Notes: generated by a model from the letters alone, not told the origin. A stretch of 64,000 nucleotides of DNA from Urechidicola croceus (GCA_905181865.1 CAJIZG010000005.1:414705-478704); one strand, 5' to 3'. Positions 33,098 through 50,804 are shown, counted from the first letter of the stretch. A program made the numbers and translations.

Positions 33098-33134
33098 AAA
33101 TCGTAGAGCGTTTATATGCTCTGCGATTTTTTTT
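33098..33134 (+). terminator. Terminator after the Gfo/Idh/MocA gene
   Basis: Stem AAATCGTAGAGC/GCTCTGCGATTT plus T-tract. Confidence 0.75.
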
Positions 33135-33200: not shown

Positions 33201-34106
33201 ATGATAGAAAAAAAATTAATTGCAGCAACATATACTCCATTAAAAGAAGACAGTTCCATTAATTTGGAATTAATCCCAACCTATAGTGACTTTCTACAAA
33301 GGAATAATGTATCAGGCGTTTTTGTCAATGGAACCACAGGAGATTTTACCTCATTGACTGTAGACGAGCGAAAATTGATTATTAATGAATGGGCTACAAA
33401 AAGAAATGAAAACTTTACGGTAATTAATCATGTCGGCCATACTAGTTTGAAGATAGCCAAAGAATTAACTATTCATTCAGCAGAGAAAGTAGATGGTATT
33501 TCGGCTTTACCTCCGTTTTATTTTAAACCGAGGTCATTGCAAAGTTTGTTAGATTATTGTAAGGAAATTGCCGCATGTGCTCCGAATTTACCTTTCTACT
33601 ACTATCATATTCCGATTCTTACTGGCGCGAACTTTTCAATGATAGAATTTTTAGAATTGGCAGATGAGCAGATTCCAAACTTAGGCGGAATCAAATTTTC
33701 TAATAATGATATTATAGGGCTAAGGCAGTGCTACAATTTTAAAGCGGGGAAATATGCCGTTTTTTATGGAGTGGATGAAATGTTTTTATCAAGCCTTCCC
33801 TACGGGATTAAAGGCTGGGTGGGTAGTACTTATAACCATTTAGCACCATTGTATCATAAAATTTATGAGGCTTTTAATAAGGGAGATATATCCTTGGCCA
33901 GTGAACTACAAGATAAGTCGGTTCAGTTTGTGCAAATGCTAGATGCTTTGGGTGGCTTCAATGGCGTAGGGAAATCGTTTATGAAAATAGTAGGAATTGA
34001 TTGCGGGCCGAGTAGATATCCTCATACGACACTTTCTAACAAGGATTTGTTAGAAGTAAAAACACAATTTGAAGAATTAAATATTATGAGTTACACTAAT
34101 AAATAG
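33201..34106 (+). CDS. nanA: N-acetylneuraminate lyase (DHDPS family)
   Basis: VNGTTGD, YYYHIP (catalytic Tyr), GIKFS (Schiff-base Lys), GVDE, GSTYN; sialic-acid gene context. Confidence 0.85.
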   Translation: MIEKKLIAATYTPLKEDSSINLELIPTYSDFLQRNNVSGVFVNGTTGDFTSLTVDERKLIINEWATKRNENFTVINHVGHTSLKIAKELTIHSAEKVDGISALPPFYFKPRSLQSLLDYCKEIAACAPNLPFYYYHIPILTGANFSMIEFLELADEQIPNLGGIKFSNNDIIGLRQCYNFKAGKYAVFYGVDEMFLSSLPYGIKGWVGSTYNHLAPLYHKIYEAFNKGDISLASELQDKSVQFVQMLDALGGFNGVGKSFMKIVGIDCGPSRYPHTTLSNKDLLEVKTQFEELNIMSYTNK

Positions 34107-34129: not shown

Positions 34130-34837
34130 TTATAAAATTCTGTAAAAATGAGGATCTAAATGAGTTCTCATGGCTGATCTGAAAGTCTCTGGTGTTCCAA
34201 TTTTAAGATTGTCGAGAAGATTTCTGTGGTTAATAATCGAACCTTTTACATGGTCTTTGGAAAGTTCTTCTTGTTCATGTACAAACTCAAAAATAGGGAG
34301 TAATAAAACTTGAAATCTTTGCAGAGTCACATTTCCAGACATTTGATATAACTTTCCATGAAACTGAATTTCATGTTCTAAGCTAAAAATGGAATCGTCA
34401 ACGCCCTGTTTTTCATCTGCCTCAACAATTTGTTCTAATTCGTCAATTCCTTTTTGTGTTTTTCTAGCAAATAAGGAGTCTGCCATTCCCATTTCTAAAA
34501 TTAACCGCAACTCAAATAGGTTTTTTAACGTCTCGTTACCTAATAACTTTGGATCCAAAACACGTTCGAAATTATCAATAAAATCGGGCTGTGTTAAAAT
34601 CATTCCTCGGTGCTTTTTAGATTCAATAATACCTAAAGTTCTTAATCTAAGCGACGCTTCTCGCACAACTGTCCTGCTTACTCCTAGCGATTCAACCAGT
34701 TCTAATTCCTTAGGAAAGGCATCTCCTGGAACTAAATTATTCTCTTTAATAAATGCCACCAATCGAAGTTCAACTTTATCAACAAGTGATAAATTATCTA
34801 AGGGTTTAATTTTCTTAATAGTTTTTGTTTTTGCCAT
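34130..34837 (-). CDS. FadR/GntR family transcriptional regulator (probable nan repressor)
   Basis: wHTH ELELVESLGVSRTVVREA, FCD domain LFELRLILE...FHGKL; divergent from the nanE operon. Confidence 0.92.
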   Translation of the reverse strand: MAKTKTIKKIKPLDNLSLVDKVELRLVAFIKENNLVPGDAFPKELELVESLGVSRTVVREASLRLRTLGIIESKKHRGMILTQPDFIDNFERVLDPKLLGNETLKNLFELRLILEMGMADSLFARKTQKGIDELEQIVEADEKQGVDDSIFSLEHEIQFHGKLYQMSGNVTLQRFQVLLLPIFEFVHEQEELSKDHVKGSIINHRNLLDNLKIGTPETFRSAMRTHLDPHFYRIL

Positions 34838-34949
34838 ATCTTTAGAAGTAATTTATCTAGTAAATTGAATTTATTAAGAAATTATTTTAATGCCACTATA
34901 TTCCATTAATTTAGGCGAAAGTATAAAAAAATATTTTATATGTTTGTAT

Positions 34950-34962
34950 TATGTTAGACATA
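34950..34962 (+). promoter_or_regulatory. Putative FadR/GntR operator TATGTTAGACATA just downstream of promoter TATGTTTG (34939-34946)
   Basis: Core of a 7-bp-arm palindrome ATTATGT-TAG-ACATAAT (34948-34964). Confidence 0.72.
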
Positions 34963-36138
34963 ATGAAAGAGATCCAACTAAGCGAACTTTACAAAAGCAC
35001 TCTTTTACAAGATGTGATTCCATTTTGGGAGCAAAATTCTGTCGACTGGCAAAATGGAGGGTACTATACTTGCCTAGATAGGAAGGGGAAAGTTTTTGAG
35101 CGGGATAAGTTTATGTGGCTACAAGGTCGACAAGCTTGGATGTTTTCTATGCTGTATAATAATGTTGAGAAAAATGAAAAATGGCTGAAAATCGCAAAAA
35201 ACGGAATTGATTTCTTAATCAATAAAGGAATGGATCTCGAGGGGAATTTCTATTTTTCATCTACAGAACAAGGAGAGCCTTTAGTTCAGCCATATAATAT
35301 ATTCTCAGATTGCTTTGCGGCTATGGCTTTTAGTCAATACGCAATTGCAACTAAAGACGAATCAATAAAAAAACTAGCAATTCAAACATATTATAATATT
35401 TTAAAGAAAAAAGACAATCCAAAATTACAGTTCGAAAAATCTACCGGAGCCAGACCTTTAAAAAGTTTTGCATTTCCGATGATTCTTTCCAATTTGGTAA
35501 TTGAATTTGAAGATGTGTTAAAAAATGAGGAAGTTGAAAAAATAATTAACTTTAGTATTCATGAAGTTATGGAAGTCTTTTTAGATAAAAATTCTGGACT
35601 TGTTTATGAATTTGTAAAACCTGATGGTTCTTTAGAAGACAGTTTCAACGGGCGTCTTCTAAATCCGGGCCATGGTATCGAAGCAATGTGGTTTATGATG
35701 GATATTGGGGTTCGAAGAAATGATCAACAATTAATTCAAAAAGCAGTAAACACAACAATAAAAATATTGGAACATAGCTGGGATGATCAGTTTGGAGGCA
35801 TCCTATATTTCATGGATGCTAATGGAAAACCACCTCAACAATTAGAATGGGATCAAAAATTGTGGTGGGTACATTTAGAAAGTTTAATAGCATTATCTAA
35901 AGCGTATGAACTAACACAAAGAAAAGAAGTACTGGCTTGGTATCAAAAAGTACACGACTATGCATGGTCACATTTTTCAGACCCAGAGAACGGCGAATGG
36001 TTTGGCTATTTAAACAGACAAGGCGAGGTGTTACTAGATTTAAAAGGTGGGAAATGGAAGGGTTGTTTTCATGTCCCAAGAGCCATGTATCAGTGCTGGA
36101 AATCATTTGAAAATATTGAGAGACAATTAAAGGATTAA
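34951..36138 (+). CDS. nanE: N-acylglucosamine 2-epimerase (AGE family; likely start ATG 34963)
   Basis: [41 protein letters not shown]. Confidence 0.93.
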
Positions 36139-36143
36139 ATAGT

Positions 36144-36917
36144 ATGAATAATAAACCAAGACCTTATATTCTTTCAGAAACCAATTGGAAAACTGTTAAA
36201 GAAAATACGTATACCGTGGCAATGCTACCTTGGGGTGCTACAGAAGCGCATAATTACCACTTACCTTATGCCACAGATACCATTCAGGCTATCTATGTTG
36301 CAAGTGAATCAGCAAGACTTGCATGGGAAACAAAGGCAAAACCAATTGTACTGCCTGCCATACCGTTTGGAGTAAACACGGGTCAAATGGATATTCCATT
36401 GTGTATAAATATGAATCCATCTACACAATATGCCGTTTTAAAGGATATCGTTCAAGTATTGGACAGTCATAATATCGACAAACTTTTGATTGTGAATAGT
36501 CATGGAGGAAATAATTTTAAGCAAATGATTCGTGAGTTAAGTCTGGAATATCCTGATGTTTTTATATGTACCATAAATTGGTGGCAAGCAGTAAATGTTT
36601 CAATATATTTCGATGAGCCTGGAGATCATGCCGGTGAGTTGGAAACTTCTGCCATGCAATTTATAACCCCAGATTGGGTGTTACCATTAAAAGATGCCGG
36701 AAATGGAAAAGCCAAGCAATTTAAATTAAAAGGATTGAAAGAAGGGTGGGTTTCTTCTCAACGTAAATGGACATCCGTTACTAAAGATACTGGTGTGGGT
36801 AATCCGCAATTTGCCACCAAAGAAAAAGGAGAATTATTTTTAAAAGAAGTTACAAAATCTATCGGTGAATTTATTGTAGAACTACACCACGCAGATTTAA
36901 ATAATTTATATGAATAA
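36144..36917 (+). CDS. Creatininase-family metal amidohydrolase
   Basis: GATEAHNYHLP..TD, NSHGGN, DHAGELETS. Confidence 0.9.
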   Translation: MNNKPRPYILSETNWKTVKENTYTVAMLPWGATEAHNYHLPYATDTIQAIYVASESARLAWETKAKPIVLPAIPFGVNTGQMDIPLCINMNPSTQYAVLKDIVQVLDSHNIDKLLIVNSHGGNNFKQMIRELSLEYPDVFICTINWWQAVNVSIYFDEPGDHAGELETSAMQFITPDWVLPLKDAGNGKAKQFKLKGLKEGWVSSQRKWTSVTKDTGVGNPQFATKEKGELFLKEVTKSIGEFIVELHHADLNNLYE

Positions 36918-36940
36918 TATATCTAATCAAATTCGAAAAA

Positions 36941-38074
36941 ATGAAAAATTATATTCTAGTATTCTTATCAATTTTAACACTTTCTGTAAGTGCTCAAAAG
37001 GAAGAATTCTCGATTGCCGAGGGAGTTACTCGGTATGTCGATCTTTTTAATACAACCATGGAAGACGGAGTTTCTTGTTATCGAATTCCATCAATTGTTA
37101 CGGCTCCAAATGGAGATATAATTGCAACTATAGATGAGCGCGTTCCATCGTGCTCGGATTTAAAAGACAGTAAAGACATCAATATTGCGATTCGAAGAAG
37201 TTCTAATAACGGAAAATCATGGACACCTATTGAAATTATTGTAGATTTTCCGTTGGGACAATCTGCTTCAGATCCATCTATGATTGTTGATAATATCACA
37301 AAGGAAATTTTCTTGTTTTACAATTATATGGATTTAGACAAGGAAAAGGATGTGTATTATTTACATGTGGTAAAAAGTGCTGATAATGGAAAAACTTGGA
37401 GTAAACCAGAAGATATTACTTCTCAAATTAGTAAGCCAGAATGGCACAAGGACTTTAAATTTATTACTTCAGGCAGAGGAATTCAAACATCTACGGGTAA
37501 GTTGTTACATTGTATGGTAAACCTAGATAATGGTACGCATTTGTTCGGAAGTGATGATCATGGTAAAACATGGTTTTTTATTGATACTCCAATTTCTCCA
37601 GCAAATGAATCTAAGGTTATTGAATTGGCTGATGGAACTTGGATGGTCAATGCGAGATCCAAAGATAAAAAAGGCTTTCGATATGTACATACTTCTCATG
37701 ATGAAGGAGAAACATGGACTGCAAAGTCCGAAGAACAATTGATAGATCCAGGTTGCAATGCAAGTATTATTAGATATACATCAATTGATGAAGGCTATAA
37801 AAAAAACAGACTTCTTTTTTCAAATGCAAATTCCGTAAAAGGCCGAGTAAACATGACTGTGAAAATTAGTTATGATGAAGGTAAAACATGGCCTGTAGAA
37901 AAAATAATTTATGAAGGTGGATCAGCCTATTCCTCATTAACGATTCTAGAAAATGGAGATATAGGATTATTTTTTGAACAAGATGTTTATAAGAAAAATC
38001 CATTCGTGAGTTTTTCCTTAAAATGGTTGACCGATGGTGACGATAAATACAAAAAACCGAAGAGCCTAAAATAG
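36941..38074 (+). CDS. Exo-sialidase GH33 (1)
   Basis: Signal peptide, YRIP, five Asp boxes (SSNNGKSW...SYDEGKTW), SAYS Tyr nucleophile. Confidence 0.92.
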   Translation: MKNYILVFLSILTLSVSAQKEEFSIAEGVTRYVDLFNTTMEDGVSCYRIPSIVTAPNGDIIATIDERVPSCSDLKDSKDINIAIRRSSNNGKSWTPIEIIVDFPLGQSASDPSMIVDNITKEIFLFYNYMDLDKEKDVYYLHVVKSADNGKTWSKPEDITSQISKPEWHKDFKFITSGRGIQTSTGKLLHCMVNLDNGTHLFGSDDHGKTWFFIDTPISPANESKVIELADGTWMVNARSKDKKGFRYVHTSHDEGETWTAKSEEQLIDPGCNASIIRYTSIDEGYKKNRLLFSNANSVKGRVNMTVKISYDEGKTWPVEKIIYEGGSAYSSLTILENGDIGLFFEQDVYKKNPFVSFSLKWLTDGDDKYKKPKSLK

Positions 38075-38129
38075 AAATATTATTTTAGTAAATTGTCGAC
38101 TATTTTAAATAACTGAGTAGATTAGTAAC

Positions 38130-40994
38130 ATGAAGAAACTTTTCGAGGAATTGCAAAATACAGTATCAGGTGAAATCTTATATGATGAGCTTTCTTTAGG
38201 AATGTATTCTACCGATGCTAGTATTTATCAGATAAAGCCAATTGCCATAGTTCTACCTCGAAATGAAGACGATATCAAAAGTGCCATAAAGGTGGCTTTT
38301 GATAACGGAATAACTATTTTACCTCGTGGAGCAGGAACTAGTTTGGCAGGACAAACTGTTGGCAAATCTATTATTCTTGATTTCTCTAAACATATGAATT
38401 CCATTATTGAAATCAATGAATCAGAGAAATGGGTTCGTGTTCAACCGGGAATGGCTCGAGACGATTTAAACGCCGTTTTAGAACCCCTAGGGTTACATTT
38501 TGCTCCAGACCCAGCAACAAGTAGCAGAGCAAATGTTGGAGGAATGGTTGGTAATAACTCTTCTGGGACTAAGAGCGTACTCTTTGGTAAAACAGTAGAT
38601 CATGTATTAGAAGTCAATGTTGTTTTAGCAGAAGGGACTGAATTACATCTTAAAAATTGTTCGCCAGAAGAGTACCAAAAGAAAGCATCTCAAGAAAATA
38701 GAGAAGGAGAAATTTATCGCACCATTAAGGACTTAATCGATGCGCATACGGATGAAATCAAAGAACGATTTCCTAAGGTAATGCGTCGCGTTGGAGGCTA
38801 TAATTTAGATGAATTTGTATATACAGATCAATGGAACTTGAGTAAGTTGGTTTGTGGTAGTGAAGGAACACTTGCAACAACAGTTGATCTAAAATTAAAT
38901 CTTGTTGATTTACCCAAAAATAAATCAGTATGTGTAGTTCACTTTACTGAATTGTTGGAAGCAATTTCTGCCGTTGAAATAATATTAACATTTAATCCCT
39001 CAGCCGTTGAAATATTAGATAAAACGGTTATTGGGTTAAGTAGAAAGAATTTAATGACAAAGCATCATTGTCATTTCATAGAAGGTAATCCAGCCGCAAT
39101 ATTAATTGTGGAGTTTTATGCAGATACTGCCGAGGATGTTATGGAGCGTCCAAAAAAGATGATTACTTTGTTAGAGGAAACCAATTTTGGTTACGCATAT
39201 CCTTTATTTCCCGATGGAAAATCATACAGTGATGTTTGGATAGTTCGTAAAAAGGGATTGGGATTAATGTTAGGTTTAAAAGGAAATAAAAAACCACTAC
39301 CATTTATTGAAGATGCCGGAATTCCATCAAAATATTTACCAGAATATATAGATCAAGTTTTAAAGGTTTGTGAAAAGTACGGAACCAAAGCAGCAATGTA
39401 TGCACATGCAAGTGTAGGCGTTATTCATGTACGTCCAATTTTAGATTTGAGGTTGGCAGAGGATATTGAACGCTTAAAAAATATTACCGATGACACTTTT
39501 CAATTAGTCATGAAATACAAAGGTTCTTGGAGTGGTGAGCATGGTGATGGATTGGTAAGAAGTGCCTACAACAAACGTTTTTTTGGAGATACAATTTATA
39601 AGGTGTTTTTAGACGTTAAAAAGTTAATGGATCCAAAAAATTTAATGAATCCCGGTAAAATTATTGAAGCTCAAACTATTGAGCACAATTTAAGATATGG
39701 TGTTGCCTATAAAGATGAGGGGGTAAAAACTGAATATAATTATAAGTCAGAAGAAGGATTCGAAGCGGCAGTTCATATGTGTTCTGGTGTAGGTGAATGC
39801 AGAAAGGTTTTGGGAGGAACTATGTGTCCAAGTTTTAAAGCTACGAGAGATGAAGAACATTCTACGCGTGGACGCGCGAATGCCTTGAGGCTGGCCATGT
39901 CGAATCAACTGGGAGAAAAAGGCCTGTCTAGTAAACGATTGCATGAGGTTATGGATTTATGCTTGTCTTGCAAGGCTTGTAAGTCAGAATGCCCGAGTAA
40001 TGTAGACATGGCAAAGATGAAGAGTGATGCCTTACAAATGTATTATGATGAACACGGCATTTCATTAAGAGATAAACTAATACGAGATTCTGCTAAGGCG
40101 GCGAGTAAGATTTCAGGTTCAAAAGCAGGCCTCGTAAATGCCATTCAAAAAACAGATTTATTTAAGTTTTTCTTAGAAAAAGCGGCACGTTTTGACAAGC
40201 GAAGGACACTTCCAGATTTTGCCAAAGAACCCTTTTATAAATGGTTTAAGAAAAACGCAAGAGAAACAAATATTGGAAACAAAAAAGTAGTTTTATTTGC
40301 CGACACCTATTTAAATTATCACGAGCCTCATATCGGAATATCTGCTCTAGAATTGTTAAATTCTTGTGGGTATGAAGTCATCTTAGCAAATGTTGGTTGT
40401 TGTCAAAGACCAAAGATATCTCATGGCTTTTTAAGAGACGCCAAGCAGGAAGGTATAAAAACTATTGACGGGTTAAAACCATTTTTAGATCAAGGTTTAA
40501 AAGTTGTGGTCTGTGAACCAAGTTGTGCTTCGGCATTGAATGACGATTTACCAGATTTAATTACCGATCAAGCAATTGCAGAACAACTAAAAAATGGCGT
40601 TATGATGATTGATGTTTTCCTTGCAAATGAATATGAAAACGAAAGATTAGATGTAGACTTTGAGCCAGTTTCTGACGGTATTGTGATTCACGGTCACTGT
40701 CATCAAAAGGCATTGTATGGCACAAATACGATGAAATCGTTGTTAAAAAATTCTGATAAGGTATCGGAAATTCCTTCGGGCTGTTGTGGTATGGCTGGTT
40801 CTTTTGGATACGAAAAGGAACATTATGATCTGTCTAAGAAAATTGGTGACGAAATTTTATTTCCAGCGGTTAATAAATTAGATAAAAATCATGAATTGAT
40901 AGCTTGCGGATTTAGTTGTCGCCACCAAATAGGACACTTTACAGAGGCAAATCCAAAGCATTTTGTGGAAGTAATTAGAGCTGTTAAAAAATAA
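38130..40994 (+). CDS. FAD-binding/Fe-S 2-hydroxy-acid dehydrogenase (GlcD-GlcF/YdiJ-type fusion)
   Basis: PRGAGTSLAGQ, GSEGTL, SGEHGDG, ferredoxin CLSCKACKSECP, CCG domains GCCQ and SGCCGMAGSFG. Confidence 0.9.
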   Translation: MKKLFEELQNTVSGEILYDELSLGMYSTDASIYQIKPIAIVLPRNEDDIKSAIKVAFDNGITILPRGAGTSLAGQTVGKSIILDFSKHMNSIIEINESEKWVRVQPGMARDDLNAVLEPLGLHFAPDPATSSRANVGGMVGNNSSGTKSVLFGKTVDHVLEVNVVLAEGTELHLKNCSPEEYQKKASQENREGEIYRTIKDLIDAHTDEIKERFPKVMRRVGGYNLDEFVYTDQWNLSKLVCGSEGTLATTVDLKLNLVDLPKNKSVCVVHFTELLEAISAVEIILTFNPSAVEILDKTVIGLSRKNLMTKHHCHFIEGNPAAILIVEFYADTAEDVMERPKKMITLLEETNFGYAYPLFPDGKSYSDVWIVRKKGLGLMLGLKGNKKPLPFIEDAGIPSKYLPEYIDQVLKVCEKYGTKAAMYAHASVGVIHVRPILDLRLAEDIERLKNITDDTFQLVMKYKGSWSGEHGDGLVRSAYNKRFFGDTIYKVFLDVKKLMDPKNLMNPGKIIEAQTIEHNLRYGVAYKDEGVKTEYNYKSEEGFEAAVHMCSGVGECRKVLGGTMCPSFKATRDEEHSTRGRANALRLAMSNQLGEKGLSSKRLHEVMDLCLSCKACKSECPSNVDMAKMKSDALQMYYDEHGISLRDKLIRDSAKAASKISGSKAGLVNAIQKTDLFKFFLEKAARFDKRRTLPDFAKEPFYKWFKKNARETNIGNKKVVLFADTYLNYHEPHIGISALELLNSCGYEVILANVGCCQRPKISHGFLRDAKQEGIKTIDGLKPFLDQGLKVVVCEPSCASALNDDLPDLITDQAIAEQLKNGVMMIDVFLANEYENERLDVDFEPVSDGIVIHGHCHQKALYGTNTMKSLLKNSDKVSEIPSGCCGMAGSFGYEKEHYDLSKKIGDEILFPAVNKLDKNHELIACGFSCRHQIGHFTEANPKHFVEVIRAVKK

Positions 40995-41025
40995 AAGAAG
41001 TATACAATACATAAAATATATACAT

Positions 41026-42138
41026 ATGAAAACCTATAAAGAATTAAACACAAGCAGACGCGTATTAATGGGTCCTGGACCAAGTGATACGCATCCAAGA
41101 GTTTTAAAAGCAATGTCAACTCCTTTAATAGGTCATTTAGACCCAGAATTTTTAGAAATAATGGATGACATAAAATCTATGACACAAGAAACATTAAAGA
41201 CAAAGAACGAATTGACTTTTGTTGTATCAGCACCTGGAAGTGCAGGGATGGAAACGTGTTTGGTTAATTTATTAGAGCCTGGTGATGAAGCCGTAGTCTG
41301 TATAAATGGTGTTTTTGGGACACGTTTGGCTGATATTGCAGAACGTTGTGGCGCAAAAGTAATTAAGATAGAAGCAGCATGGGGCTCTCCAATTAACCCA
41401 GACGATGTGGAAGCTGCATTAAAGACATGTAATCCAAAATTATTAGCTATTGTCCATGCAGAGACTTCAACAGGTGTATTACAGCCTCTAGAAGAAATTA
41501 GCAAAATATCCAAAAACGCTGGAGCACTTTTAGTAGTTGATGCTGTGACTTCATATTGCGGGACTGAATTAAAAGTAGATGAGTGGGGAATTGATGCTTT
41601 ATATTCTGGAAGCCAAAAATGTTTAAGTGCGCCTCCTGGTCTATCTCCTGTAACCTTTAGTCAAGCTGCTATTGATGTACTAAATAATAGAAAAACAAAA
41701 GTTCAAAGTTGGTTTTTAGATTTAACAATGGTTAAAAATTATTGGTCAGGAGCGAAGAGAGCGTATCATCATACGGCACCAGTTTCTGCTATGTTTGCCA
41801 TGAGGGAAGCTTTAAGATTGGTTCTTGAAGAGGGGCTTGAAAACAGGTTTAAGCGTCATCAGAAAAATCACGAATTATTACGTGATGGATTAGAGGCAAT
41901 GGGCTTTAAATTCTTAGTGGATAAGGAATATAGATTACCGATGTTGAACGCCGTTACAATTCCTGCAGGAGTTGACGATGCAAATGTTAGAAAACGATTG
42001 TTAGAAGAATATAATATAGAAATTGGTGGAGGATTAGGCCCTTATGCTGGAAAAATTTGGCGTATTGGATTAATGGGTGAAAGTTCTACTAAAAATAATG
42101 TAAACATGTTATTGTCTGCATTGAAACAAGTAATATAA
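41026..42138 (+). CDS. Alanine--glyoxylate/serine--pyruvate aminotransferase (class V)
   Basis: LMGPGPS, VHAETSTG, VDAV, SGSQKCLSAPPG, YHHTAP, WRIGLMG. Confidence 0.92.
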   Translation: MKTYKELNTSRRVLMGPGPSDTHPRVLKAMSTPLIGHLDPEFLEIMDDIKSMTQETLKTKNELTFVVSAPGSAGMETCLVNLLEPGDEAVVCINGVFGTRLADIAERCGAKVIKIEAAWGSPINPDDVEAALKTCNPKLLAIVHAETSTGVLQPLEEISKISKNAGALLVVDAVTSYCGTELKVDEWGIDALYSGSQKCLSAPPGLSPVTFSQAAIDVLNNRKTKVQSWFLDLTMVKNYWSGAKRAYHHTAPVSAMFAMREALRLVLEEGLENRFKRHQKNHELLRDGLEAMGFKFLVDKEYRLPMLNAVTIPAGVDDANVRKRLLEEYNIEIGGGLGPYAGKIWRIGLMGESSTKNNVNMLLSALKQVI

Positions 42139-42151
42139 TACTAAATTAATT

Positions 42152-43036
42152 ATGTCAGTAATCACAGATTTTTCCGATTTTCATCATCAGGTTTCAACAA
42201 TATTTAAACAGCCTCAGTCCTCAGAAGAATGGGAGCAATATCGATTGACCGATGAGCAAGTAGCACATTTTCATGAATTTGGTTACGTTTCTGGAATTAA
42301 ACTCTTGGAAGAAAATCAAATAAATTTATTGAGAAAGGAACTAGAAGAGTTGAGAGATCCTAAACATCCTGCGCATCATCTTTTTTACGAGTTTCATTCA
42401 AATGAATCCACAAATAGTGATGCTGTTTTGTTTCATTCTTTAGGTCATTGGCGCATAGGTTTAAATTTTCATGACGTCCTTTGGAATCCCGCTTTTGTAA
42501 TGGCCGCTCATCAATTATTGGAAAACAAACCAGTTCGATTCTGGCACGATCAACTATTTTGTAAACCTGCAAAACATGGTGGAGTTGTTGCCTGGCACCA
42601 AGATTACTCTTACTGGACACGTACTATTGCAATGCAACATTTAACCTGTTGGACTGGGTTAGATGATGCTACAACACAAAACGGCTGTTTACATTATATT
42701 CCAAAAAGTCACAAATGGGGGCTTCTAGATGCCCCTAATTTGGCTGGTAATATGGATGAATTGCTGCAGTATCTGAGTCCCGAACAAAAAAAGGAATTCA
42801 ACCCAGTAGCGATTGAATTGAAAAAAGGGTATAGTACTTTTCACCATCCTTTGATGGTTCATGGATCCTATGAAAACAACTCTCAATTAAGAAGAAGAGC
42901 TTTTGTATTAAACGTTTTTGCTGATGGAACCATAAGCAATACAGATCAAGAATTATTACAAGGTGTTCCTATAATTTCAAAAGGAAAAAAAATGGAGGGA
43001 AAATTTTTTCCTTTGCTTTATGATCAACATTCCTAA
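42152..43036 (+). CDS. PhyH-family Fe(II)/2-oxoglutarate dioxygenase
   Basis: HxD in WHQDYSYW, distal His in MVHGS, Arg in RRRAF. Confidence 0.9.
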   Translation: MSVITDFSDFHHQVSTIFKQPQSSEEWEQYRLTDEQVAHFHEFGYVSGIKLLEENQINLLRKELEELRDPKHPAHHLFYEFHSNESTNSDAVLFHSLGHWRIGLNFHDVLWNPAFVMAAHQLLENKPVRFWHDQLFCKPAKHGGVVAWHQDYSYWTRTIAMQHLTCWTGLDDATTQNGCLHYIPKSHKWGLLDAPNLAGNMDELLQYLSPEQKKEFNPVAIELKKGYSTFHHPLMVHGSYENNSQLRRRAFVLNVFADGTISNTDQELLQGVPIISKGKKMEGKFFPLLYDQHS

Positions 43037-43078
43037 TTTATAAAAAAGAAAATAAAAAAATTGTAAACCTCTTAATCA

Positions 43079-44224
43079 ATGAAACTTAATGTAAAAACTT
43101 TTATTAAATGCCTTACCCTCTTACTATTATTCAGTATCAAAATAAATTCACAGGGTACGAAGCAATTAAATAAAGAATTATCGAAAGATATAAAAACGTT
43201 GTTCACCCCTAGTGAAGGAGACTATAATTGTTTTAGAATTCCAGCTGTTGTTGTGGCTAAAGACGGCAGTATATTAGCCTTTGCTGAGGCTAGAAAGAAA
43301 AGTTGCTCGGATACAGGTAATATCGATATAGTGATGAAAAAATCTACTGACAATGGAGCATCATGGAGTAATTTGATAGTTATTTGGAATGATGGACAAA
43401 ATGTATGTGGGAATCCTGCACCTGTAGTAGATGCTAAAACAGGTACAGTTCATTTGCTATTGACTTGGAATAATGGAGACGACCATGAATCTGAAATAAT
43501 TGCTCAAACTAGTGGAGAAACTCGAGAAGTTTATCATTTACAATCTTCAGACAACGGTGACTCTTGGTCACAACCAAAAAATATTACTGCAACTACGAAA
43601 TTAAAAAATTGGACGTGGTATGCAACAGGGCCTGTACATGGAATTCAATTGAAAAAAGGGCCATATAAAGGAAGGCTCATGATTCCTTCGGACCATATAG
43701 AAGCGGGTACAAAAAAATATTATTCTCATGTGATTTATTCTGACGACAACGGAGTATCTTGGGAATTGGGAGGAAGAACTCCACAAGATCAAGTGAATGA
43801 ATGTACACTAGTACAACTAGAAAATGGTGATTTGATGTTGAACATGCGTAATTATGAGCGAAAAGAAGATCAGGCGCGTCAGGTAGCAATAAGCAAAGAT
43901 GGAGGAGTGACATGGGGAAATCAGCATATTGACACCAATTTGCCCGAACCACGTTGTCAAGCAGCCTTACTAGCTGTTATGAGAAAACGGAAGCAAGTAT
44001 TACTTTTTATCAATCCAGCAAACCCAAAGAAAAGAGTCAATATGACACTATCTGTGAGTAGGGATCAAGGAAAAAGTTGGGATGAAAAAATCAGTGTTTT
44101 TAAAGGCCCTTCCGCCTATTCTGATCTTGTTGAATTGAATACCAATCAAATATTTGTGTTTTTTGAAGCAGGAGAAAAGAATGCGTATGAAGGAATTCAT
44201 TATAAATTAATTGATCTGGATTAA
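43079..44224 (+). CDS. Exo-sialidase GH33 (2)
   Basis: Signal peptide, FRIP, five Asp boxes, NMRN, AYSD. Confidence 0.92.
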   Translation: MKLNVKTFIKCLTLLLLFSIKINSQGTKQLNKELSKDIKTLFTPSEGDYNCFRIPAVVVAKDGSILAFAEARKKSCSDTGNIDIVMKKSTDNGASWSNLIVIWNDGQNVCGNPAPVVDAKTGTVHLLLTWNNGDDHESEIIAQTSGETREVYHLQSSDNGDSWSQPKNITATTKLKNWTWYATGPVHGIQLKKGPYKGRLMIPSDHIEAGTKKYYSHVIYSDDNGVSWELGGRTPQDQVNECTLVQLENGDLMLNMRNYERKEDQARQVAISKDGGVTWGNQHIDTNLPEPRCQAALLAVMRKRKQVLLFINPANPKKRVNMTLSVSRDQGKSWDEKISVFKGPSAYSDLVELNTNQIFVFFEAGEKNAYEGIHYKLIDLD

Positions 44225-44280
44225 TCGATGCTTAATATTTTTATTAGAATGATACGACTTAATTACGAAATCCAATCTCT

Positions 44281-46971
44281 ATGAAACAATTAGCGGTTGT
44301 TCTACTTTTATACTTCCTAAGTTTTATTAATTCAAATGCTCAAAAATCTTCTAGTATTTTTGATTGGACTTACGATAAAGAGATTCCGAATGAAGTAGGA
44401 TTGAATGGTTCATTTATGGGAATTCATAATGATGTATTAATCATTGCAGGTGGTGCTAATTTTCCAAACACTCCTGTCTGGGAAGGTGGTGAAAAAGTAT
44501 GGTATTCATCCATTTATGTTTTAGAAAAAAAAGGGACTAAGTCGAAATGGCATCTAGAACCTTCAGTTAGATTAACTAATGCATTGGCATACGGAGTTTC
44601 AATAAGCACTCCACAAGGTGTTTTGTGCATTGGTGGTGATAATGAAACAGAAGTATTCAAAGATGTCTTTTTATTAAAATGGAATAAAAAAAGCAATAAA
44701 ATAGAGATTCAAGACCTACCTCCTATGCCTATAAATTTATACAATATGGGCGCAAGTATTGTTGAAGATATTGTTTTTGTAATTGGAGGACAAGAGTCAA
44801 AAAGTACCGGAGCAACAAATCATTTTTTGTCGTTTAATTTAACTTCAACATTGACAAGTAAAGCATATACATGGGAGCAATTAGAAAATTTTCCTGGAAG
44901 AAGGAGAGTGCAACCGGTAGTTGTTGGTCAAAGTAATGGACATCAAGATTGTTTATATGTATTTAGTGGAATTTCATATGATCCCACTGCAGAAGTAACC
45001 CATACTATGCTAGATGATGTCTATGAATTTAATCCTCATAAAAATCGATGGACACAAAAGGAATCTGTTCCCAACAATGGAACACCGGGAGTAATAGGAG
45101 GTTATATTGCGGCTGCTCCAGCCATAAAAATGGGAGATTCTCACATTGTGATTTTTGGAGGAGCCGGAGGTGAACAGCAAAACCTTTCGCGACGAATTCC
45201 GATTTGGAATGCCATTAAAAAGTTAAAAAGTGAAATTAATCAAAATGAAGAAACGATTGCGAAAATTGATTCATTAAATATGATTGATAATGAATTGTTG
45301 AAAACCACTCGATTCAGTAAAATCGTTTGGTCATATCATTCAATCACAGATACTTGGAGTAAAAAAGGGGTGCTACCAAGTGACGCTCAGGTAGTAACTC
45401 AAGCATTGAATTGGAATAATAACATAGTAATATCTGGTGGAGAAATACATCCAGGTGTAAGAACTCCAAAAATTACCATTGCCACACAAAAACCCTATGA
45501 AGCCAGTTTTGGCTGGATAAATTATATAACTCTTATTACATATTTAATGTTAATGGTTTGGATGGGATGGTATTTCTCACGAAAAAATAAAACAACAGAT
45601 GATTATTTTCTTGCGGGAGGTAGAATTCCATGGTGGGCTGCTGGGTTAAGTATTTATGCTACTATGTTAAGTGCCATTACGTATTTGTCACAACCGGCAT
45701 TAGCATATTCTTTTGACTGGCAGGCATATTTGGGGTATTTTGCCATTTTGATTGTAGTCCCTGTTGTAATAGCTTTTTATCTGCCTTTTTTCAGGAAATT
45801 AAATATTACCACGGCATACGAATATTTGGAAAAAAGATTCAACTTAACTATTAGAATGTTTGGAAGTATATCTTTCATCTTATTTCAATTAGTAAGAATG
45901 GGAATTGTAGTATATCTTCCTGCCTTAGCCCTTTCAACAGTTGTCGGAATTGATATTTATTTAGCAATCAGTGTTATGGGGGTTTTAGCAATTCTTTATA
46001 CCTATATGGGTGGAATGGAAGCCGTGATCTGGACAGATGTGGTACAAGTAATTGTATTGATGGCAGGTTTAATCATTGGATTGATTTATATCGGCATTGA
46101 GATTGGAGATGTAGGCTATATTTTTGATACGGCATTGGCCGATGGTAAACTTCAAATGGTAGATTTACGATGTAGTTTTATAGAAGTAGTAACATGGTCC
46201 TTATTTATTGGCACATTTGCTTTGACATTAATTCCATACACCACAGACCAGTCAGTAGTGCAGAGATACATGACGACATCGAGTGAAAAAGAAGCACGAA
46301 AAAGTATATGGCTAACTGGAATTATTACTCTCCCAGCGGGTCTTCTAATATTTGCAATGGGTACATTTTTGTATGTCTATTTTAAAGAACATCCCGAATT
46401 TTTGAGTGTCGGTATGCAGAACGACAGTGTATTTCCTTTATTTATTACAAATCATTTACCTCCTGGGGTTGCAGGTTTGGTTATAGCTGGAATTTTTTCT
46501 GCTTCCATGTCGAGTTTAGATAGCAGTATGCACAGTATTTCTACCGTTGTGACCGTAGATTTTTATAAGAGATTTACGAAAGTCTATTCTGATACTAATG
46601 GTCTTAAAATTGCAAAATGGACTACAGTTATTGTAGGAGTTTTCGGAACCCTGATTGCATGTTTAATGGCCGCTTTCCCTGTAAAATCGTTATTCTTTTT
46701 GTTTCAAGAAGTAATTGGTCTTCTGGGAAGTGCAATGGCAGGAATATTTATTCTCGGAATTTTTGTTAAGAAAGCCAATTGGAAGGGAACACTAATAGGA
46801 GCTGTATTTAGTATTATAGTTTTAGTGTTTGTTAAATATAACACCCCTATTAACTTTTATATCTATCCTTTAATTGCAATTCCTATATGTGTCATTGGAG
46901 GATATCTTTTCAGTCTAATTTTAAAAGTTGAAGAAAAAGACATATCCGATTTGGTCTATTCAAAAAAATAA
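44281..46971 (+). CDS. Kelch-repeat sialic acid mutarotase (NanM-like) fused to a Na+/solute symporter (SiaT-like)
   Basis: Signal peptide; about 410 aa kelch propeller (IAGGANFP, LCIGG, VIGG, ISGGEIHPGVRTP); then SSS domain DYFLAGG..WWAAGLSIYAT.LSAITY, YTYMGGMEAVIWTD, DQSVVQRY. Confidence 0.88.
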   Translation: MKQLAVVLLLYFLSFINSNAQKSSSIFDWTYDKEIPNEVGLNGSFMGIHNDVLIIAGGANFPNTPVWEGGEKVWYSSIYVLEKKGTKSKWHLEPSVRLTNALAYGVSISTPQGVLCIGGDNETEVFKDVFLLKWNKKSNKIEIQDLPPMPINLYNMGASIVEDIVFVIGGQESKSTGATNHFLSFNLTSTLTSKAYTWEQLENFPGRRRVQPVVVGQSNGHQDCLYVFSGISYDPTAEVTHTMLDDVYEFNPHKNRWTQKESVPNNGTPGVIGGYIAAAPAIKMGDSHIVIFGGAGGEQQNLSRRIPIWNAIKKLKSEINQNEETIAKIDSLNMIDNELLKTTRFSKIVWSYHSITDTWSKKGVLPSDAQVVTQALNWNNNIVISGGEIHPGVRTPKITIATQKPYEASFGWINYITLITYLMLMVWMGWYFSRKNKTTDDYFLAGGRIPWWAAGLSIYATMLSAITYLSQPALAYSFDWQAYLGYFAILIVVPVVIAFYLPFFRKLNITTAYEYLEKRFNLTIRMFGSISFILFQLVRMGIVVYLPALALSTVVGIDIYLAISVMGVLAILYTYMGGMEAVIWTDVVQVIVLMAGLIIGLIYIGIEIGDVGYIFDTALADGKLQMVDLRCSFIEVVTWSLFIGTFALTLIPYTTDQSVVQRYMTTSSEKEARKSIWLTGIITLPAGLLIFAMGTFLYVYFKEHPEFLSVGMQNDSVFPLFITNHLPPGVAGLVIAGIFSASMSSLDSSMHSISTVVTVDFYKRFTKVYSDTNGLKIAKWTTVIVGVFGTLIACLMAAFPVKSLFFLFQEVIGLLGSAMAGIFILGIFVKKANWKGTLIGAVFSIIVLVFVKYNTPINFYIYPLIAIPICVIGGYLFSLILKVEEKDISDLVYSKK

Positions 46972-48077: not shown

Positions 48078-49235
48078 ATGAATGATTTAAAAATAGAAAA
48101 GGTCGAGCTTTTTAAAGTCCCTCCGAGATGGTTGTTTCTAAAAATAACCACCAAATGTGGTATTGTTGGATGGGGAGAACCTATAGTTGAAGGAAAAGCA
48201 GATACTGTTGCGGCGTGCATAAAAGAATTAGAACAATATATAATGGGTCGAAACGCCAATAATATCGAAGATATTTGGCAAATTTTATATAGAGGTGGCT
48301 TTTATAGAGGAGGCCCTATCTTGATGAGTGCAATATCTGGTATTGATCAAGCCCTATGGGATATAAAAGGTAAATATTTAAATGTCCCTGTTCATGAATT
48401 ATTAGGTGGAGCTGTTCGTCAAAAAATGAAAATGTACTGCTGGATTGGAGGAGATAATCCCGAAGTTGTTTTAGATCAGGCTACTAAAAAAATAAATGCT
48501 GGTTTTAATGCCGTAAAGATGAATGCAACGGGTGGAATGGAATGGGTTTCTTCCATAAAAGACATTAAGAATGTTGCAAACAATATCAAACTCTTACGAG
48601 AAGAATTCGGATATGAGTTAGACATAGGATTAGACTTTCATGGAAGGGTACACAAACCAATGGTTAAGAGACTTATAGACGAATTGGCTCCTTATGAACC
48701 TATGTTTATTGAAGAGCCCGTTTTAAGTGAAAATAATGATGCGCTACGTCATATTTACCAATACACCAATATTCCAATTGCAACGGGAGAACGTATGTTT
48801 TCAAGATGGGATTTTAAGGAGATTTTACACCAAGGGGTTGTTGATATTATTCAACCAGATCTTAGTCACGCCGGAGGTATCTCTGAAGTTAGACGCATTG
48901 CCACAATGGCTGAAGCCTATGATATTGCCATTGCTCCTCATTGTCCCTTAGGGCCAATCTCATTGGCTTCTGCACTTCACTTAGATTTTGTATCCTCTAA
49001 TGCTATCATTCAAGAGAGTAGTTTGGGAATACATTATAACAGAGGATATGACATCTTAGATTATGTCTTAAACCCAGAAGTTTTTAATGTAGAGGATGGC
49101 TCTATAAACTTACTTACAAAACCTGGTTTGGGAATTGAAATTAATGAAGAAAAACTAAAAGAAGGTCAAAAAATTGGACACAATTGGGCCAATCCCATTT
49201 GGAGAAATCCCGACGGAAATTTTGCAGAATGGTAA
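48078..49235 (+). CDS. dgoD: D-galactonate dehydratase (enolase superfamily)
   Basis: VPPRWLFLKI, GWGEP, FYRGG, DFHGR, FIEEP, ATGER, PHCPLGP, WRNPDG..AEW end. Confidence 0.92.
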   Translation: MNDLKIEKVELFKVPPRWLFLKITTKCGIVGWGEPIVEGKADTVAACIKELEQYIMGRNANNIEDIWQILYRGGFYRGGPILMSAISGIDQALWDIKGKYLNVPVHELLGGAVRQKMKMYCWIGGDNPEVVLDQATKKINAGFNAVKMNATGGMEWVSSIKDIKNVANNIKLLREEFGYELDIGLDFHGRVHKPMVKRLIDELAPYEPMFIEEPVLSENNDALRHIYQYTNIPIATGERMFSRWDFKEILHQGVVDIIQPDLSHAGGISEVRRIATMAEAYDIAIAPHCPLGPISLASALHLDFVSSNAIIQESSLGIHYNRGYDILDYVLNPEVFNVEDGSINLLTKPGLGIEINEEKLKEGQKIGHNWANPIWRNPDGNFAEW

Positions 49236-49277
49236 CCCAATTTAATACTTAGAAACGAACCAAAAACAACCATCACT

Positions 49278-50600: not shown

Positions 50601-50804
50601 ACTTTCACCTTTGATATCTCCTAATTTATCTTGAAAAATAAAAGTAATTTATTCGAGTTTGTTGTTATAGTTTCTTGACCTCGCTTTCTGCCTTGCAAGT
50701 TTCCTTTAAAACCATAGTCTGTATAAAATGCTGTTAACACGTATATTCTAGACTTTAATTCTTCTGTTAATTTCTTTATTCTAAATGAGCCTTTAGTTCC
50801 TATT

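Follow-up and report, generated by a model that had tools for sequence, protein, structure and literature searches.

The window, a 64,000-nucleotide stretch of Urechidicola croceus DNA, carries on its plus strand eight intact open reading frames, all co-directional and separated by gaps of 5, 23, 55, 31, 13, 42, and 56 bp, exactly as an earlier note on this DNA had read them. They encode an N-acyl-D-glucosamine 2-epimerase (AGE, the Bacteroidetes "nanE"; 34951–36138), a creatininase-family amidohydrolase (36144–36917), a secreted GH33 sialidase (sialidase 1; 36941–38074), a YdiJ-like FAD/Fe-S 2-hydroxy-acid dehydrogenase that is a candidate glycolate dehydrogenase (38130–40994), an AGXT-type class-V aminotransferase that is a candidate alanine/serine-glyoxylate aminotransferase (41026–42138), a PhyH-family Fe(II)/2OG dioxygenase and candidate sugar O-demethylase (42152–43036), a second secreted GH33 sialidase (sialidase 2; 43079–44224), and a signal peptide–bearing fusion of a permuted mutarotase (kelch) with an SSS symporter (mutarotase::SSS; 44281–46971). 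The three non-canonical genes, for the dehydrogenase, the aminotransferase, and the PhyH protein, lie between the two sialidases, again as had been noted. Preceding the operon are, on the plus strand, genes for a Tat-signal GFO/IDH/MocA oxidoreductase (31591–33057; twin-arginine motif SRRSFIKTG), which resembles the BT_2158-like glycoside 3-dehydrogenase family below its cut-off, and for a NanA-like lyase of the DHDPS family (33201–34106), and, on the minus strand, a gene for a NanR-like GntR/FCD regulator (34130–34837) that keeps the same position in related loci. A minus-strand pair, consisting of an esterase (PF00756; 29475–30275) and its partner, a FoADH/ZoADH-type zinc alcohol dehydrogenase (ADH; 30287–31396), lies 4 kb upstream, and there is a transposase 4 kb past the operon's 3' end.

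A regular-expression scan of the listed intergenic gaps for the Bacteroidetes-type -7 box (TAnnTTTG) returned a single plus-strand match, TATGTTTG at 34939–34946, just 5' of the first gene, and none in the plus-strand gaps within the operon. The locus is transcribed in situ, with one metatranscriptome contig spanning the aminotransferase–PhyH junction. An assembly artifact was ruled out as the source of the arrangement, since the same order is found on independent metagenome contigs of 25 kb and 18 kb and is kept on a 6-kb contig from a different strain that carries 14 SNPs; it is stable across several strains and studies. Eight studies yielded metagenomes with the locus, sampled from seawater, estuaries, and plankton, and four runs from four of these studies were checked by mapping. 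By this occurrence the organism is a planktonic marine flavobacterium, and the host-associated, echinoderm-linked lifestyle that had been proposed for it is not supported.

As judged from sequence, the AGE, the amidohydrolase, the two sialidases, and the mutarotase::SSS fusion are the standard core of a Flavobacteriaceae nan operon. The epimerase scores 639 bits against NF052547 (cut-off 600), which places it in the AGE family and rejects the reading of this "nanE" as a ManNAc-6-phosphate epimerase. The DHDPS-family lyase (PF00701) comes closest in NCBIfam to N-acetylneuraminate lyase, although it reaches only 156 bits where 281 are required, and the position of its gene is syntenic with nanA in related nan loci. 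Both sialidases are BNR_2/GH33 proteins with signal peptides and with the RIP motif and Asp boxes of GH33 exo-sialidases (YRIP in sialidase 1, FRIP in sialidase 2); sialidase 1 matches the solved sialidases 4FJ6, 4BBW, and 1EUR with E values of 1e-41 to 1e-46, and sialidase 2 also matches solved sialidases. The amidohydrolase can be assigned to the creatininase family only (PF02633, 185 bits; best solved relative, 3LUB), the creatininase equivalog TIGR04448 having been rejected at 68 bits (cut-off 235). Of the 35 closest loci, about 20 share the synteny of AGE, amidohydrolase, and sialidase 1. The amidohydrolase gene is thus a real member of the operon; its proposed tie to a glycolyl-salvage module falls away, since it is kept in nan operons with or without the dehydrogenase–aminotransferase pair. 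Nor is it required as a deacylase, because NagA and NagB homologues are present elsewhere in the genome, on contigs C3 and C5. With E. coli NagC as the query, no NagC/ROK-type match was obtained in the genome, and the only ROK gene seen there is a ROK–SIS fusion on C3.

The locus shares a putative, NanA-like lyase, AGE, GH33 sialidase, mutarotase plus transporter, and GntR/FCD regulator with the Bacteroidetes-type nan cluster of Bacteroides and Tannerella (NanL, AGE-type NanE, transporter, sialidase). It differs from that cluster in containing no RokA-type hexosamine kinase, NagA, or NagB, in using a mutarotase::SSS fusion instead of the MFS transporter NanT, and in adding the creatininase-family amidohydrolase, the PhyH protein, the FAD/Fe-S dehydrogenase, and the AGXT-type aminotransferase. 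Comparison of related loci shows that the operon is a mosaic, in which the family's usual nan operon has received two imported add-ons, the dehydrogenase–aminotransferase pair and PhyH. One related locus (L167) reads nanA–gntR–AGE–amidohydrolase–sialidase–sialidase–mutarotase::SSS, with neither add-on; a second (L013) holds the same set plus PhyH; and the pair is added only in the window. All of the closest nan operons (Urechidicola and the MAGs BB24 and CSMAG_2938) lack the pair, and in one genome of the same genus (G155) the whole locus is missing, with no AGE, PhyH, or aminotransferase. The substrates given below for the add-ons are all predicted.

The dehydrogenase is a single 954-aa fusion with FAD_binding_4, FAD-oxidase_C, and 4Fe-4S/GlpC-like domains, in which a GlcD-like domain is joined to a GlpC/GlcF-like domain. 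The same architecture, at about 950–1020 aa, is found in E. coli YdiJ, which is strictly specific for D-2-hydroxyglutarate (D-2-HG; PMC9504171). YdiJ D-2-HG dehydrogenase is also the best NCBIfam match, and D-lactate dehydrogenases are among the solved relatives. Membership in the YdiJ family (NF049975) was rejected, the score of 623 bits being less than half of the cut-off of 1350 and the identity to E. coli YdiJ 28%. In contrast to YdiJ, the window enzyme is an accessory paralogue always paired with the aminotransferase: orthologues of its type (78–85% identity) were limited to 6 of the 300 genera, always adjoining the aminotransferase gene (Fisher p 9e-11). Of 301 genomes, 273 have a paralogue 38–43% identical to it; this near-universal protein is the product of a different gene and appears to be the better fit to a housekeeping D-2-HG role. 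GlcDEF membership was rejected as well, as the protein is one fused chain that scores 224 bits for GlcD (cut-off 568; 25% identity) and 68 bits for GlcF (cut-off 333), and no GlcE was found. The enzyme may function like GlcDEF, though it is not a member of that family.

The aminotransferase, present in one copy in the genome, has the class-V fold (PF00266). Its best solved relative is the alanine-glyoxylate aminotransferase 1VJO (395 bits), and PucG, human AGXT, and mosquito AGT score about 300–330 bits; the closest solved relatives all use glyoxylate, and on this basis the protein is of the AGXT type. It reaches no NCBIfam equivalog cut-off, with BhcA, PhnW, and pyridoxamine-pyruvate transaminase all at about 210 bits. 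Among 80 related loci in Bacteroidota, the dehydrogenase and aminotransferase genes adjoin in about 60, and a permease of the LctP/GlcA (lactate/glycolate) family (PF02652) lies beside the pair in 42. At two loci (L120 and L103), the pair is joined by a Hyi-like TIM barrel protein and a D-2-hydroxyacid dehydrogenase resembling hydroxypyruvate reductase. The genome contains no other recognizable glyoxylate sink: malate synthase, isocitrate lyase, and glyoxylate carboligase were sought, and none scored above its cut-off. GlcDEF did not either. Given the conserved pairing, the neighboring permease, the AGXT-type relatives, and the absence of another sink, conversion of glycolate through glyoxylate to glycine is a reasonable and the most likely reading of the pair, and this element of the earlier interpretation holds up. 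It would parallel the photorespiratory coupling of algal and plant mitochondria, where an FAD-linked glycolate dehydrogenase supplies glyoxylate to a glycine-forming aminotransferase (PMC3346230; 1VJO is the cyanobacterial AGT), with the difference that the present pair belongs to heterotrophic Bacteroidota and is accompanied by a permease.

The broader proposal, that the pair forms a conserved sialic-acid module, fails on the rare co-occurrence with nan genes that the earlier note itself had named as refuting. At 78 of the 80 loci, nan genes are absent from the vicinity of the pair. Only in this species does the pair lie among such genes, and a single further lineage has it next to them, with two loci (L105 and L115) sharing the order nanA–mutarotase::SSS–AGE–sialidase–LctP–aminotransferase–dehydrogenase. 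Being 82% identical in synteny, these two were counted as one event, a second and independent juxtaposition; L105 still has the permease, and its gaps measure 250–410 bp. About 0.3 chance adjacencies are expected under a generous null, so the enrichment is weak, and the co-occurrence of the aminotransferase with AGE (5 of 9 genera versus 33 of 291, p 0.002) is based on raw counts uncorrected for phylogeny or genome size. What appears to survive of the module is only a lineage-specific recruitment.

The PhyH protein (PF05721, 112 bits) has a WHQD motif and a distal HG that supply the HxD...H iron triad of its family. It has >584 relatives at 66–80% identity and belongs to a different clade from the FJS/PHYHD1 type, scoring only 38 bits against PHYHD1 (2OPW). 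The glycolyl route in which it had been included leaves it unexplained, and it has conserved partners of its own, the sialidase and the FoADH-type ADH with its esterase. In relatives its gene adjoins the first sialidase; elsewhere it adjoins the ADH and esterase genes, as in loci L002, L004, L006, L007, L008, L012, L044, L063, and L083. It neighbors the GFO/IDH/MocA oxidoreductase gene in L039 and L057 (80% identity) and also in Dyadobacter and Algoriphagus. Among solved structures, the window ADH has its best relatives in FoADH (8H2A; 517 bits, E 2.7e-154) and ZoADH (8H2B; 489 bits) (PMC10033563). Identity as a class-III or mycothiol-dependent formaldehyde dehydrogenase was rejected, the scores lying under the cut-offs. 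The esterase gene lies 11 bp from that of the ADH, matching the adjacent esterases of FoADH/ZoADH loci, and the FghA equivalog was rejected for it (29 bits; cut-off 282). In the CYP236A loci of marine Flavobacteriia, the same ADH family, again with an adjacent esterase, occurs within a glycan-utilization locus, and the ADH, which adjoins a P450 demethylase, is needed for growth on 6-O-methylgalactose (PMC10033563). Here, in contrast, no PF00067 (P450) match was found anywhere in the genome, and the recurrent oxygenase partner is the PhyH dioxygenase. PF05721 enzymes are able to remove the methyl group from 2'-O-methyl ribose with release of formaldehyde (PMC12709175).

Our preferred explanation, held tentatively and with somewhat less than even confidence, is that the operon was built stepwise and disposes of a C2 unit derived from decorated sialic acids. 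Starting from the standard core (nanA, gntR, and AGE–amidohydrolase–sialidase–sialidase–mutarotase::SSS), the sialidase–sialidase junction has gained the PhyH dioxygenase, which elsewhere travels with the FoADH-type ADH and esterase, and also the two-gene cassette of YdiJ-like dehydrogenase and AGXT-type aminotransferase. In other Bacteroidota this cassette stands free as a unit with an LctP/GlcA-type permease and most likely runs a photorespiration-like route; here it has been parted from the permease and put under the nan promoter, where it would clear a C2 hydroxy-acid or glyoxylate formed intracellularly during catabolism. The leading candidate for the C2 source would be the N-glycolyl group of Neu5Gc, and PhyH, ADH, and esterase may strip another decoration, for which O-methyl is the best guess. 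The link between cassette and nan genes is drawn from the tight gaps (55, 31, and 13 bp), the lack of an internal -7 box, the transcript across the aminotransferase–PhyH junction, the stability of the arrangement, the L105/L115 lineage, the co-occurrence of the aminotransferase with AGE across genera, the permease stranded between transposases on C4, and the E. coli precedent for glycolate from Neu5Gc.

A dedicated route from Neu5Gc to glycine, as originally suggested, keeps the enzymatic reading of the pair and loses the host link and the general association with nan genes. It is plausible, if doubtful, on the gene evidence, and the organism is a candidate consumer of decorated sialic acids. 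For E. coli, Neu5Gc has been proposed to yield glycolate that is handled by the unlinked glc system (PMC3658417). The logic of lyase and epimerase, deacylation, oxidation, and glyoxylate sink would be the same, whereas the candidate oxidase here is a single fused polypeptide rather than GlcDEF, the putative sink is transamination to glycine rather than malate synthase G, and the genes lie within the nan operon and not in separate nan, nag, and glcDEFGBA loci.

The clean, short gaps with no IS scars at the junctions, an arrangement fixed across several strains and studies, and the independent nan-adjacent copy in L105/L115 all speak against pure accident. An incidental, IS-mediated relocation is nonetheless possible, if somewhat unlikely; a rearrangement would have split the LctP–dehydrogenase–aminotransferase unit and inserted its two enzyme genes into the nan operon, the pair would still serve exogenous phytoplankton glycolate through an orphan LctP permease, and its co-transcription with nan genes would be metabolically meaningless. 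Insertion sequences abound in the genome, so the move could be neutral, and the orphan permease, 74% identical to that of L096, stands alone on C4 between a DDE and an IS3 transposase. The transposase 3' of the operon, the rarity of the fusion with nan genes, and a MAG contig (L081) that is 99.3% identical to the window over 37779–42327 only and then enters a dispersed 77-bp repeat agree with relocation, as does the occurrence of the organism in samples of seawater and plankton, settings rich in glycolate. A regulator-controlled sialic-acid promoter, however, would be a poor means of expressing a glycolate pathway.

In L083, the genes TauE–dehydrogenase–aminotransferase–PhyH–ADH–esterase–sulfatase all run in the plus direction, and the spacings between aminotransferase and esterase are 18, 15, and 81 bp. 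The order in L082 is similar, and neither has nan genes within 7–10 kb, which ties the cassette to PhyH rather than to sialic acid and counts against the preferred explanation. Such loci suggest a single oxidative-cleavage pathway, in which PhyH would cleave a substituent (O-methyl, O-carboxyalkyl, or a sulfonated/sulfated C2 unit) to give formaldehyde, glycolaldehyde, or glyoxylate, and the ADH, esterase, dehydrogenase, and aminotransferase would convert these further to formate and glycine, with N-glycolyl groups not involved. The window PhyH groups with those of L013, L003, L082, and L083 in a clade with 96/89 support, and it co-occurs with the aminotransferase (p 5e-4) and the ADH (11 of 23 versus 17 of 277, p 4e-7; adjacent in G243, G219, G279, and G071). 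The 6-O-methylgalactose and 2'-O-methyl ribose precedents and the genome-wide absence of P450 fit as well, as does a paralogous PhyH–esterase–ADH trio located on C3 of the same genome among SSS, ROK–SIS, GH92, and SASA genes. Several observations count against the pathway, which we regard as distinctly unlikely: of the 28 genera with PhyH, 23 have no aminotransferase, and of the 9 with the aminotransferase, 4 have no PhyH; in soil Dyadobacter and Chitinophaga, the gene neighborhoods of PhyH orthologues (66–70% identity) are unrelated; and FoADH and ZoADH showed no thiol-dependent formaldehyde dehydrogenase activity (PMC10033563). It is very unlikely that the dehydrogenase acts on D-lactate, with O-lactyl sialic acids or lactyl ethers as its source, or on D-2-HG, with the aminotransferase making alanine or glutamate, because the YdiJ match and the D-lactate dehydrogenases among solved relatives, together with the transport of lactate as well as glycolate by LctP-family permeases, are set against the score far under the YdiJ cut-off, the better-suited paralogue, the glyoxylate enzymes nearest to the aminotransferase, the Hyi-like and hydroxypyruvate reductase-like neighbors that suggest C2/C3 glyoxylate metabolism, and the fact that pyruvate and 2-oxoglutarate require no dedicated AGXT-type aminotransferase.

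In an extension of the preferred explanation that we consider improbable, the add-ons might together form a full route for doubly decorated sialic acids of the echinoderm or fish type (for example, 8-O-methyl-Neu5Gc). If it were true, PhyH would be the first sialic-acid O-demethylase, a non-P450 demethylase of methoxy sugars working with a FoADH-type ADH and an esterase; the creatininase-family amidohydrolase would count as a new deacylase of N-acyl-hexosamines (or of sialates); and the fused FAD/Fe-S enzyme with its AGXT-type partner would constitute a hitherto unrecognized glycolate pathway of Bacteroidota. The greatest metatranscriptome depth in the locus is found over the GFO/IDH/MocA oxidoreductase gene.

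The eight open reading frames at 34951–46971 (plus strand) and the seven gaps between them (5, 23, 55, 31, 13, 42, and 56 bp) agree exactly with the earlier note. Family scans identified the epimerase as an AGE-type N-acylglucosamine 2-epimerase, above the equivalog cut-off, and assigned the amidohydrolase to the creatininase family, the aminotransferase (41026–42138) to class V, and the dioxygenase to the PhyH family. Both GH33 sialidases (377 and 381 aa) carry signal peptides and Y/FRIP motifs; the dehydrogenase (38130–40994; 954 aa, FAD and Fe-S) combines a GlcD-like N-terminal half with a GlpC/GlcF-like C-terminal half, and the last gene encodes a mutarotase::SSS fusion with a signal peptide. 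Upstream lie a NanA-like DHDPS-family lyase (33201–34106), a divergent GntR/FCD regulator (34130–34837), a Tat-signal GFO-family oxidoreductase (31591–33057), and, on the minus strand, a Zn-ADH (30287–31396) and an esterase (29475–30275). A regular-expression scan of the plus-strand gaps for the Bacteroidetes-type −7 box (TAnnTTTG) returned a sole match at 34939, directly before the epimerase gene, and none in the internal operon gaps. The gene order is reproduced by independent metagenome contigs of 25 kb and 18 kb and by a 6-kb contig of another strain that differs by 14 SNPs. The operon genes are transcribed in situ, as seen in metatranscriptome contigs that are all short and of low depth and do not define the extent of the transcript; one of them spans the aminotransferase–PhyH junction.

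The operon is a mosaic. For comparison, three sets of 80 loci were assembled, one around relatives of PhyH, one around those of the aminotransferase, and one around those of the amidohydrolase, and all window proteins were mapped onto them. Of the 35 closest amidohydrolase loci, about 20 share a Flavobacteriaceae core of nanA, gntR, and AGE–amidohydrolase–sialidase, among them loci of Gelidibacter, Lutibacter, Arenibacter, Snuella, and Zhouia. One fetched locus, L167, contains nanA, gntR, AGE, the amidohydrolase, both sialidases, and the mutarotase::SSS fusion in that order, which is the window operon minus its three non-canonical genes, and a Urechidicola vernalis locus (L013) has the same order plus PhyH behind the first sialidase. 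Neither this dehydrogenase nor this aminotransferase gene was found within 10 kb in any of the 80 PhyH loci lacking the window's dehydrogenase–aminotransferase cassette. When one genome was surveyed for each of 300 Flavobacteriaceae genera, AGE was present in 38, PhyH in 28, the aminotransferase in 9, and the window-type dehydrogenase in 6; AGE, PhyH, and the aminotransferase are all absent from a genome of the window's own genus. These counts and this absence indicate that the whole locus is accessory, and the dehydrogenase–aminotransferase cassette is therefore its latest layer: a widespread free-standing unit, recruited into the nan operon in the window's species only. No description of a nan operon combined with this cassette was found in the literature searched.

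In about 60 of the 80 aminotransferase loci, the dehydrogenase gene directly neighbors the aminotransferase gene, with the dehydrogenase first in Flavobacteriaceae and the opposite order in Cytophagales; at 22 further loci, a more distant FAD/Fe-S paralogue holds the dehydrogenase's place. The window-type dehydrogenase (78–85% identity) is confined to six genera and always adjoins the aminotransferase (Fisher p 9e-11). A 555-aa L-lactate-permease-family protein, from the family that includes E. coli GlcA and LldP, accompanies 42 of the 80 loci, and the interval between dehydrogenase and permease in L120 and L103 contains genes for a hydroxypyruvate-isomerase-like TIM barrel and a D-2-hydroxyacid dehydrogenase. 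The closest solved relatives of the aminotransferase are alanine–glyoxylate aminotransferase 1VJO (395 bits), PucG, and human AGXT. As for an alternative glyoxylate sink, the genome has no malate synthase, isocitrate lyase, or GlcDEF, and no glyoxylate carboligase above cut-off. Conversion of glycolate through glyoxylate to glycine is the best reading by analogy with glcDEFGBA, which likewise brings together a permease, an oxidase, and a glyoxylate sink; a second analogy is the photorespiratory coupling of glycolate dehydrogenase with an aminotransferase (PMC3346230). Judged by genomic context and homology, this enzymatic assignment, proposed from the first reading of the DNA, is supported, and the pair probably handles glycolate and glyoxylate.

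Other roles were considered for these enzymes. A phosphonate pathway with PhnW- and PhnY*-like enzymes was rejected: models for PhnW, BhcA, and pyridoxamine–pyruvate enzymes give the aminotransferase equal scores, all below cut-off, and among solved structures alanine–glyoxylate aminotransferases are far nearer than PhnW (395 versus 106 bits). E. coli YdiJ, which is strictly specific for D-2-hydroxyglutarate, shares the architecture of the window dehydrogenase at 28% identity, but a housekeeping D-2-hydroxyglutarate role is unlikely for the latter because 273 of 301 genomes carry another paralogue, 38–43% identical, and the same-genus genome without the locus is among them. The conserved combination of a lactate/glycolate-family (LctP) permease, a fused FAD/Fe-S dehydrogenase, and an AGXT-type aminotransferase is put forward as a candidate Bacteroidota glycolate-assimilation route; three Bacteroidota isolates have been scored as lacking known glycolate genes (10.1101/2025.09.29.679071).

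PhyH, together with the upstream ADH and esterase, is a separate, recurrent module. More than 584 relatives of PhyH at 66–80% identity occur in marine and soil Bacteroidota, and their neighborhoods change repeatedly: of 81 loci, 11 have sialidase or nan genes, 9 ADH plus esterase, 9 hexuronate genes, and 13 the GFO oxidoreductase. The soil neighborhoods (amidohydrolase_2, phospholipase C, carboxylesterase, ThuA, and TIM-barrel genes) revealed no common functional theme. Across genera, PhyH accompanies ADH in 11 of 23 cases versus 17 of 277 (p 4e-7), and the two adjoin each other in the genus representatives G243, G219, G279, and G071. The window ADH is closely homologous to FoADH and ZoADH (8H2A, E 2.7e-154), ADHs that, with an esterase, are conserved neighbors of CYP236A 6-O-methylgalactose demethylases; growth of Zobellia on 6-O-methylgalactose requires the ADH, although it is no formaldehyde dehydrogenase, and both FoADH and ZoADH are inactive on formaldehyde with glutathione, mycothiol, or bacillithiol (PMC10033563). 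Canonical thiol-dependent formaldehyde detoxification was likewise rejected for the window, whose esterase is not FghA and whose ADH scores far below the equivalog cut-offs of both the class-III and the mycothiol models.

The window's genome contains no P450, and both of its two ADH–esterase pairs are accompanied by a linked PhyH gene. The trio outside the window (L165, contig C3:489306–502787) is 51% (PhyH), 53% (esterase), and 63% (ADH) identical to the window copies and neighbors an SSS transporter, a ROK–SIS fusion, a GH92 alpha-mannosidase, and a SASA/GH2-N esterase. This region counts as another candidate locus for decorated sugars, with methyl-mannose as a conceivable substrate. PF05721 enzymes have been shown to demethylate 2′-O-methyl ribose, releasing formaldehyde (PMC12709175), and for this reason a sugar O-demethylase is the favored, though tentative, guess for PhyH; alternatively, PhyH may catalyze oxidative deamination or other cleavages. 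A literature search for a 2OG-dependent methoxy-sugar demethylase in Flavobacteriia gave nothing specific. PhyH recurring with FoADH-type ADH and esterase is offered as a candidate non-P450 demethylation cassette.

How the glycolate cassette came to lie among nan genes admits several explanations. One that remains is that cassette, PhyH, ADH, and esterase form a joint pathway acting on a substituent other than N-glycolyl. In a MAG locus (Bacteroidetes Dive100_bin3.23, L083:5783–15554; L082 is similar), a TauE-family transporter, dehydrogenase, aminotransferase, PhyH, FoADH-type ADH, esterase, and sulfatase are co-directional, with gaps of 18, 15, and 81 bp from aminotransferase to esterase and no nan genes near the cassette. 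The window PhyH falls in a supported clade with those of L013, L003, L082, and L083, so the cassette has come to adjoin PhyH in the window and in L082/L083 at the least. The link between cassette and PhyH is as strong as that between cassette and nan genes, and the L083 order suggests that the C2 (glycolate/glyoxylate) and PhyH/ADH/esterase cassettes can act together, in L083-type loci possibly on sulfonated or sulfated substrates. Also speaking against a tie between cassette and nan genes, MAG CSMAG_2938 has a window-like nan locus with the ADH, esterase, and PhyH (L003/L170), and its cassette is on another contig (L087).

Accidental, IS-mediated relocation of the cassette also remains. An orphan LctP-family permease gene on contig C4 (5244–6908; L166, C4:1047–8473) has a DDE transposase on one side and an IS3-type transposase pair on the other and is the probable remnant of an original permease–dehydrogenase–aminotransferase unit. 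Evidence for a link of the cassette to sialic acid includes this stranding of the permease as well as the tight gaps in the operon, an arrangement that is stable across strains, and the absence of an internal promoter motif or IS scar.

The proposal in the earlier note, a dedicated route from Neu5Gc to glycine, is partly supported: it retains its glycolate/glyoxylate enzymes but is weakened by genomic distribution, the cassette adjoining nan genes in only two of about 80 lineages. The operon has no LctP-family permease, as expected if the substrate arises inside the cell. One independent nan-adjacent case exists, in L105 and L115 (co-directional nanA, MutSSS, AGE, sialidase, LctP, aminotransferase, and dehydrogenase), which are 82% identical in synteny and thus represent a single event. 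AGE is present in 5 of the 9 genera with the aminotransferase versus 33 of the 291 without it (p 0.002, uncorrected for phylogeny and genome size). Against a link, the nan locus of Arenibacter (G041) is on a different contig from the permease–dehydrogenase–aminotransferase trio. That recruitment reflects Neu5Gc catabolism is plausible but, on balance, less likely than not. Among the non-Neu5Ac sialic acids (N-glycolyl, O-methyl), Neu5Gc has, to our knowledge, only a paper pathway for its bacterial catabolism, built on unlinked genes (PMC3658417). The locus supplies four concrete, clonable candidate enzymes in one putative transcription unit, and three by-products, namely the glycolate route, the demethylation cassette, and an uncharacterized nan-operon member, may outweigh the Neu5Gc idea.

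That member is the creatininase-family enzyme, a conserved, so far uncharacterized component of flavobacterial nan operons that is kept with or without the cassette. It is not a creatininase equivalog by the family model, and a literature search on creatininase-family enzymes in sialic-acid loci gave nothing specific. Beyond nan loci, the genes that follow it encode LrgA/LrgB-family transporters, at times joined by a PEP-synthase-like gene; LrgA/LrgB genes stand directly after the creatininase-family gene or the first sialidase in 13 loci (L168–L179, L178, L181, L189, L192), and a PEP-synthase-like gene is nearby in Salegentibacter-type amidohydrolase loci. This context hints at a link to pyruvate or a small carboxylate. 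In one Reichenbachiella strain (L182:9992–14632), a creatininase-family gene stands at the position that the aminotransferase has in a related MAG (L120:10001–18684) and adjoins a divergent AraC regulator and a YdiJ-like dehydrogenase. NagA-like and NagB-like genes lie elsewhere in the window's genome; a possible role for the amidohydrolase is that of an N-glycolyl or N-acetyl deacylase.

Eight studies that sampled seawater, estuaries, and plankton yielded runs containing the stretch, and these metagenome sources do not support the initial guess of an echinoderm or other host association.

Several further features of the region were observed. A MAG contig, L081 (1–8121), is 99.3% identical to the window over 37779–42327 only, a segment that extends from the end of the first sialidase through the dehydrogenase and aminotransferase genes into the first 175 bp of PhyH; the contig then enters a 77-bp repeat found at more than 20 genomic places, including window 25716–25792. 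L081 was not accepted as an alternative gene order, being a short contig that departs from the window sequence at dispersed repeats, and may be an IS/MITE-bearing population variant or a chimeric assembly. The GFO/IDH/MocA oxidoreductase (31591–33057) belongs to the BT_2158 glycoside 3-dehydrogenase type, scoring 425 bits where the cut-off is 750. It adjoins nanA, has the highest metatranscriptome depth in the locus, and recurs beside PhyH in Dyadobacter, Algoriphagus, and two Flavobacteriaceae MAGs; between it and nanA, a strong intrinsic-terminator-like hairpin (33098–33129) has a 14-bp stem followed by a T run. Downstream of the esterase and on the same strand, 25946–28264 (minus) encodes an FdhF/YdeP-family molybdopterin oxidoreductase (887 bits, above cut-off), a homologue of which (54% identical) lies near the aminotransferase in L103. 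Directly downstream of the operon, 48078–51432 contains a galactonate dehydratase (623 bits, above cut-off), a GntP permease, and a DDE transposase.
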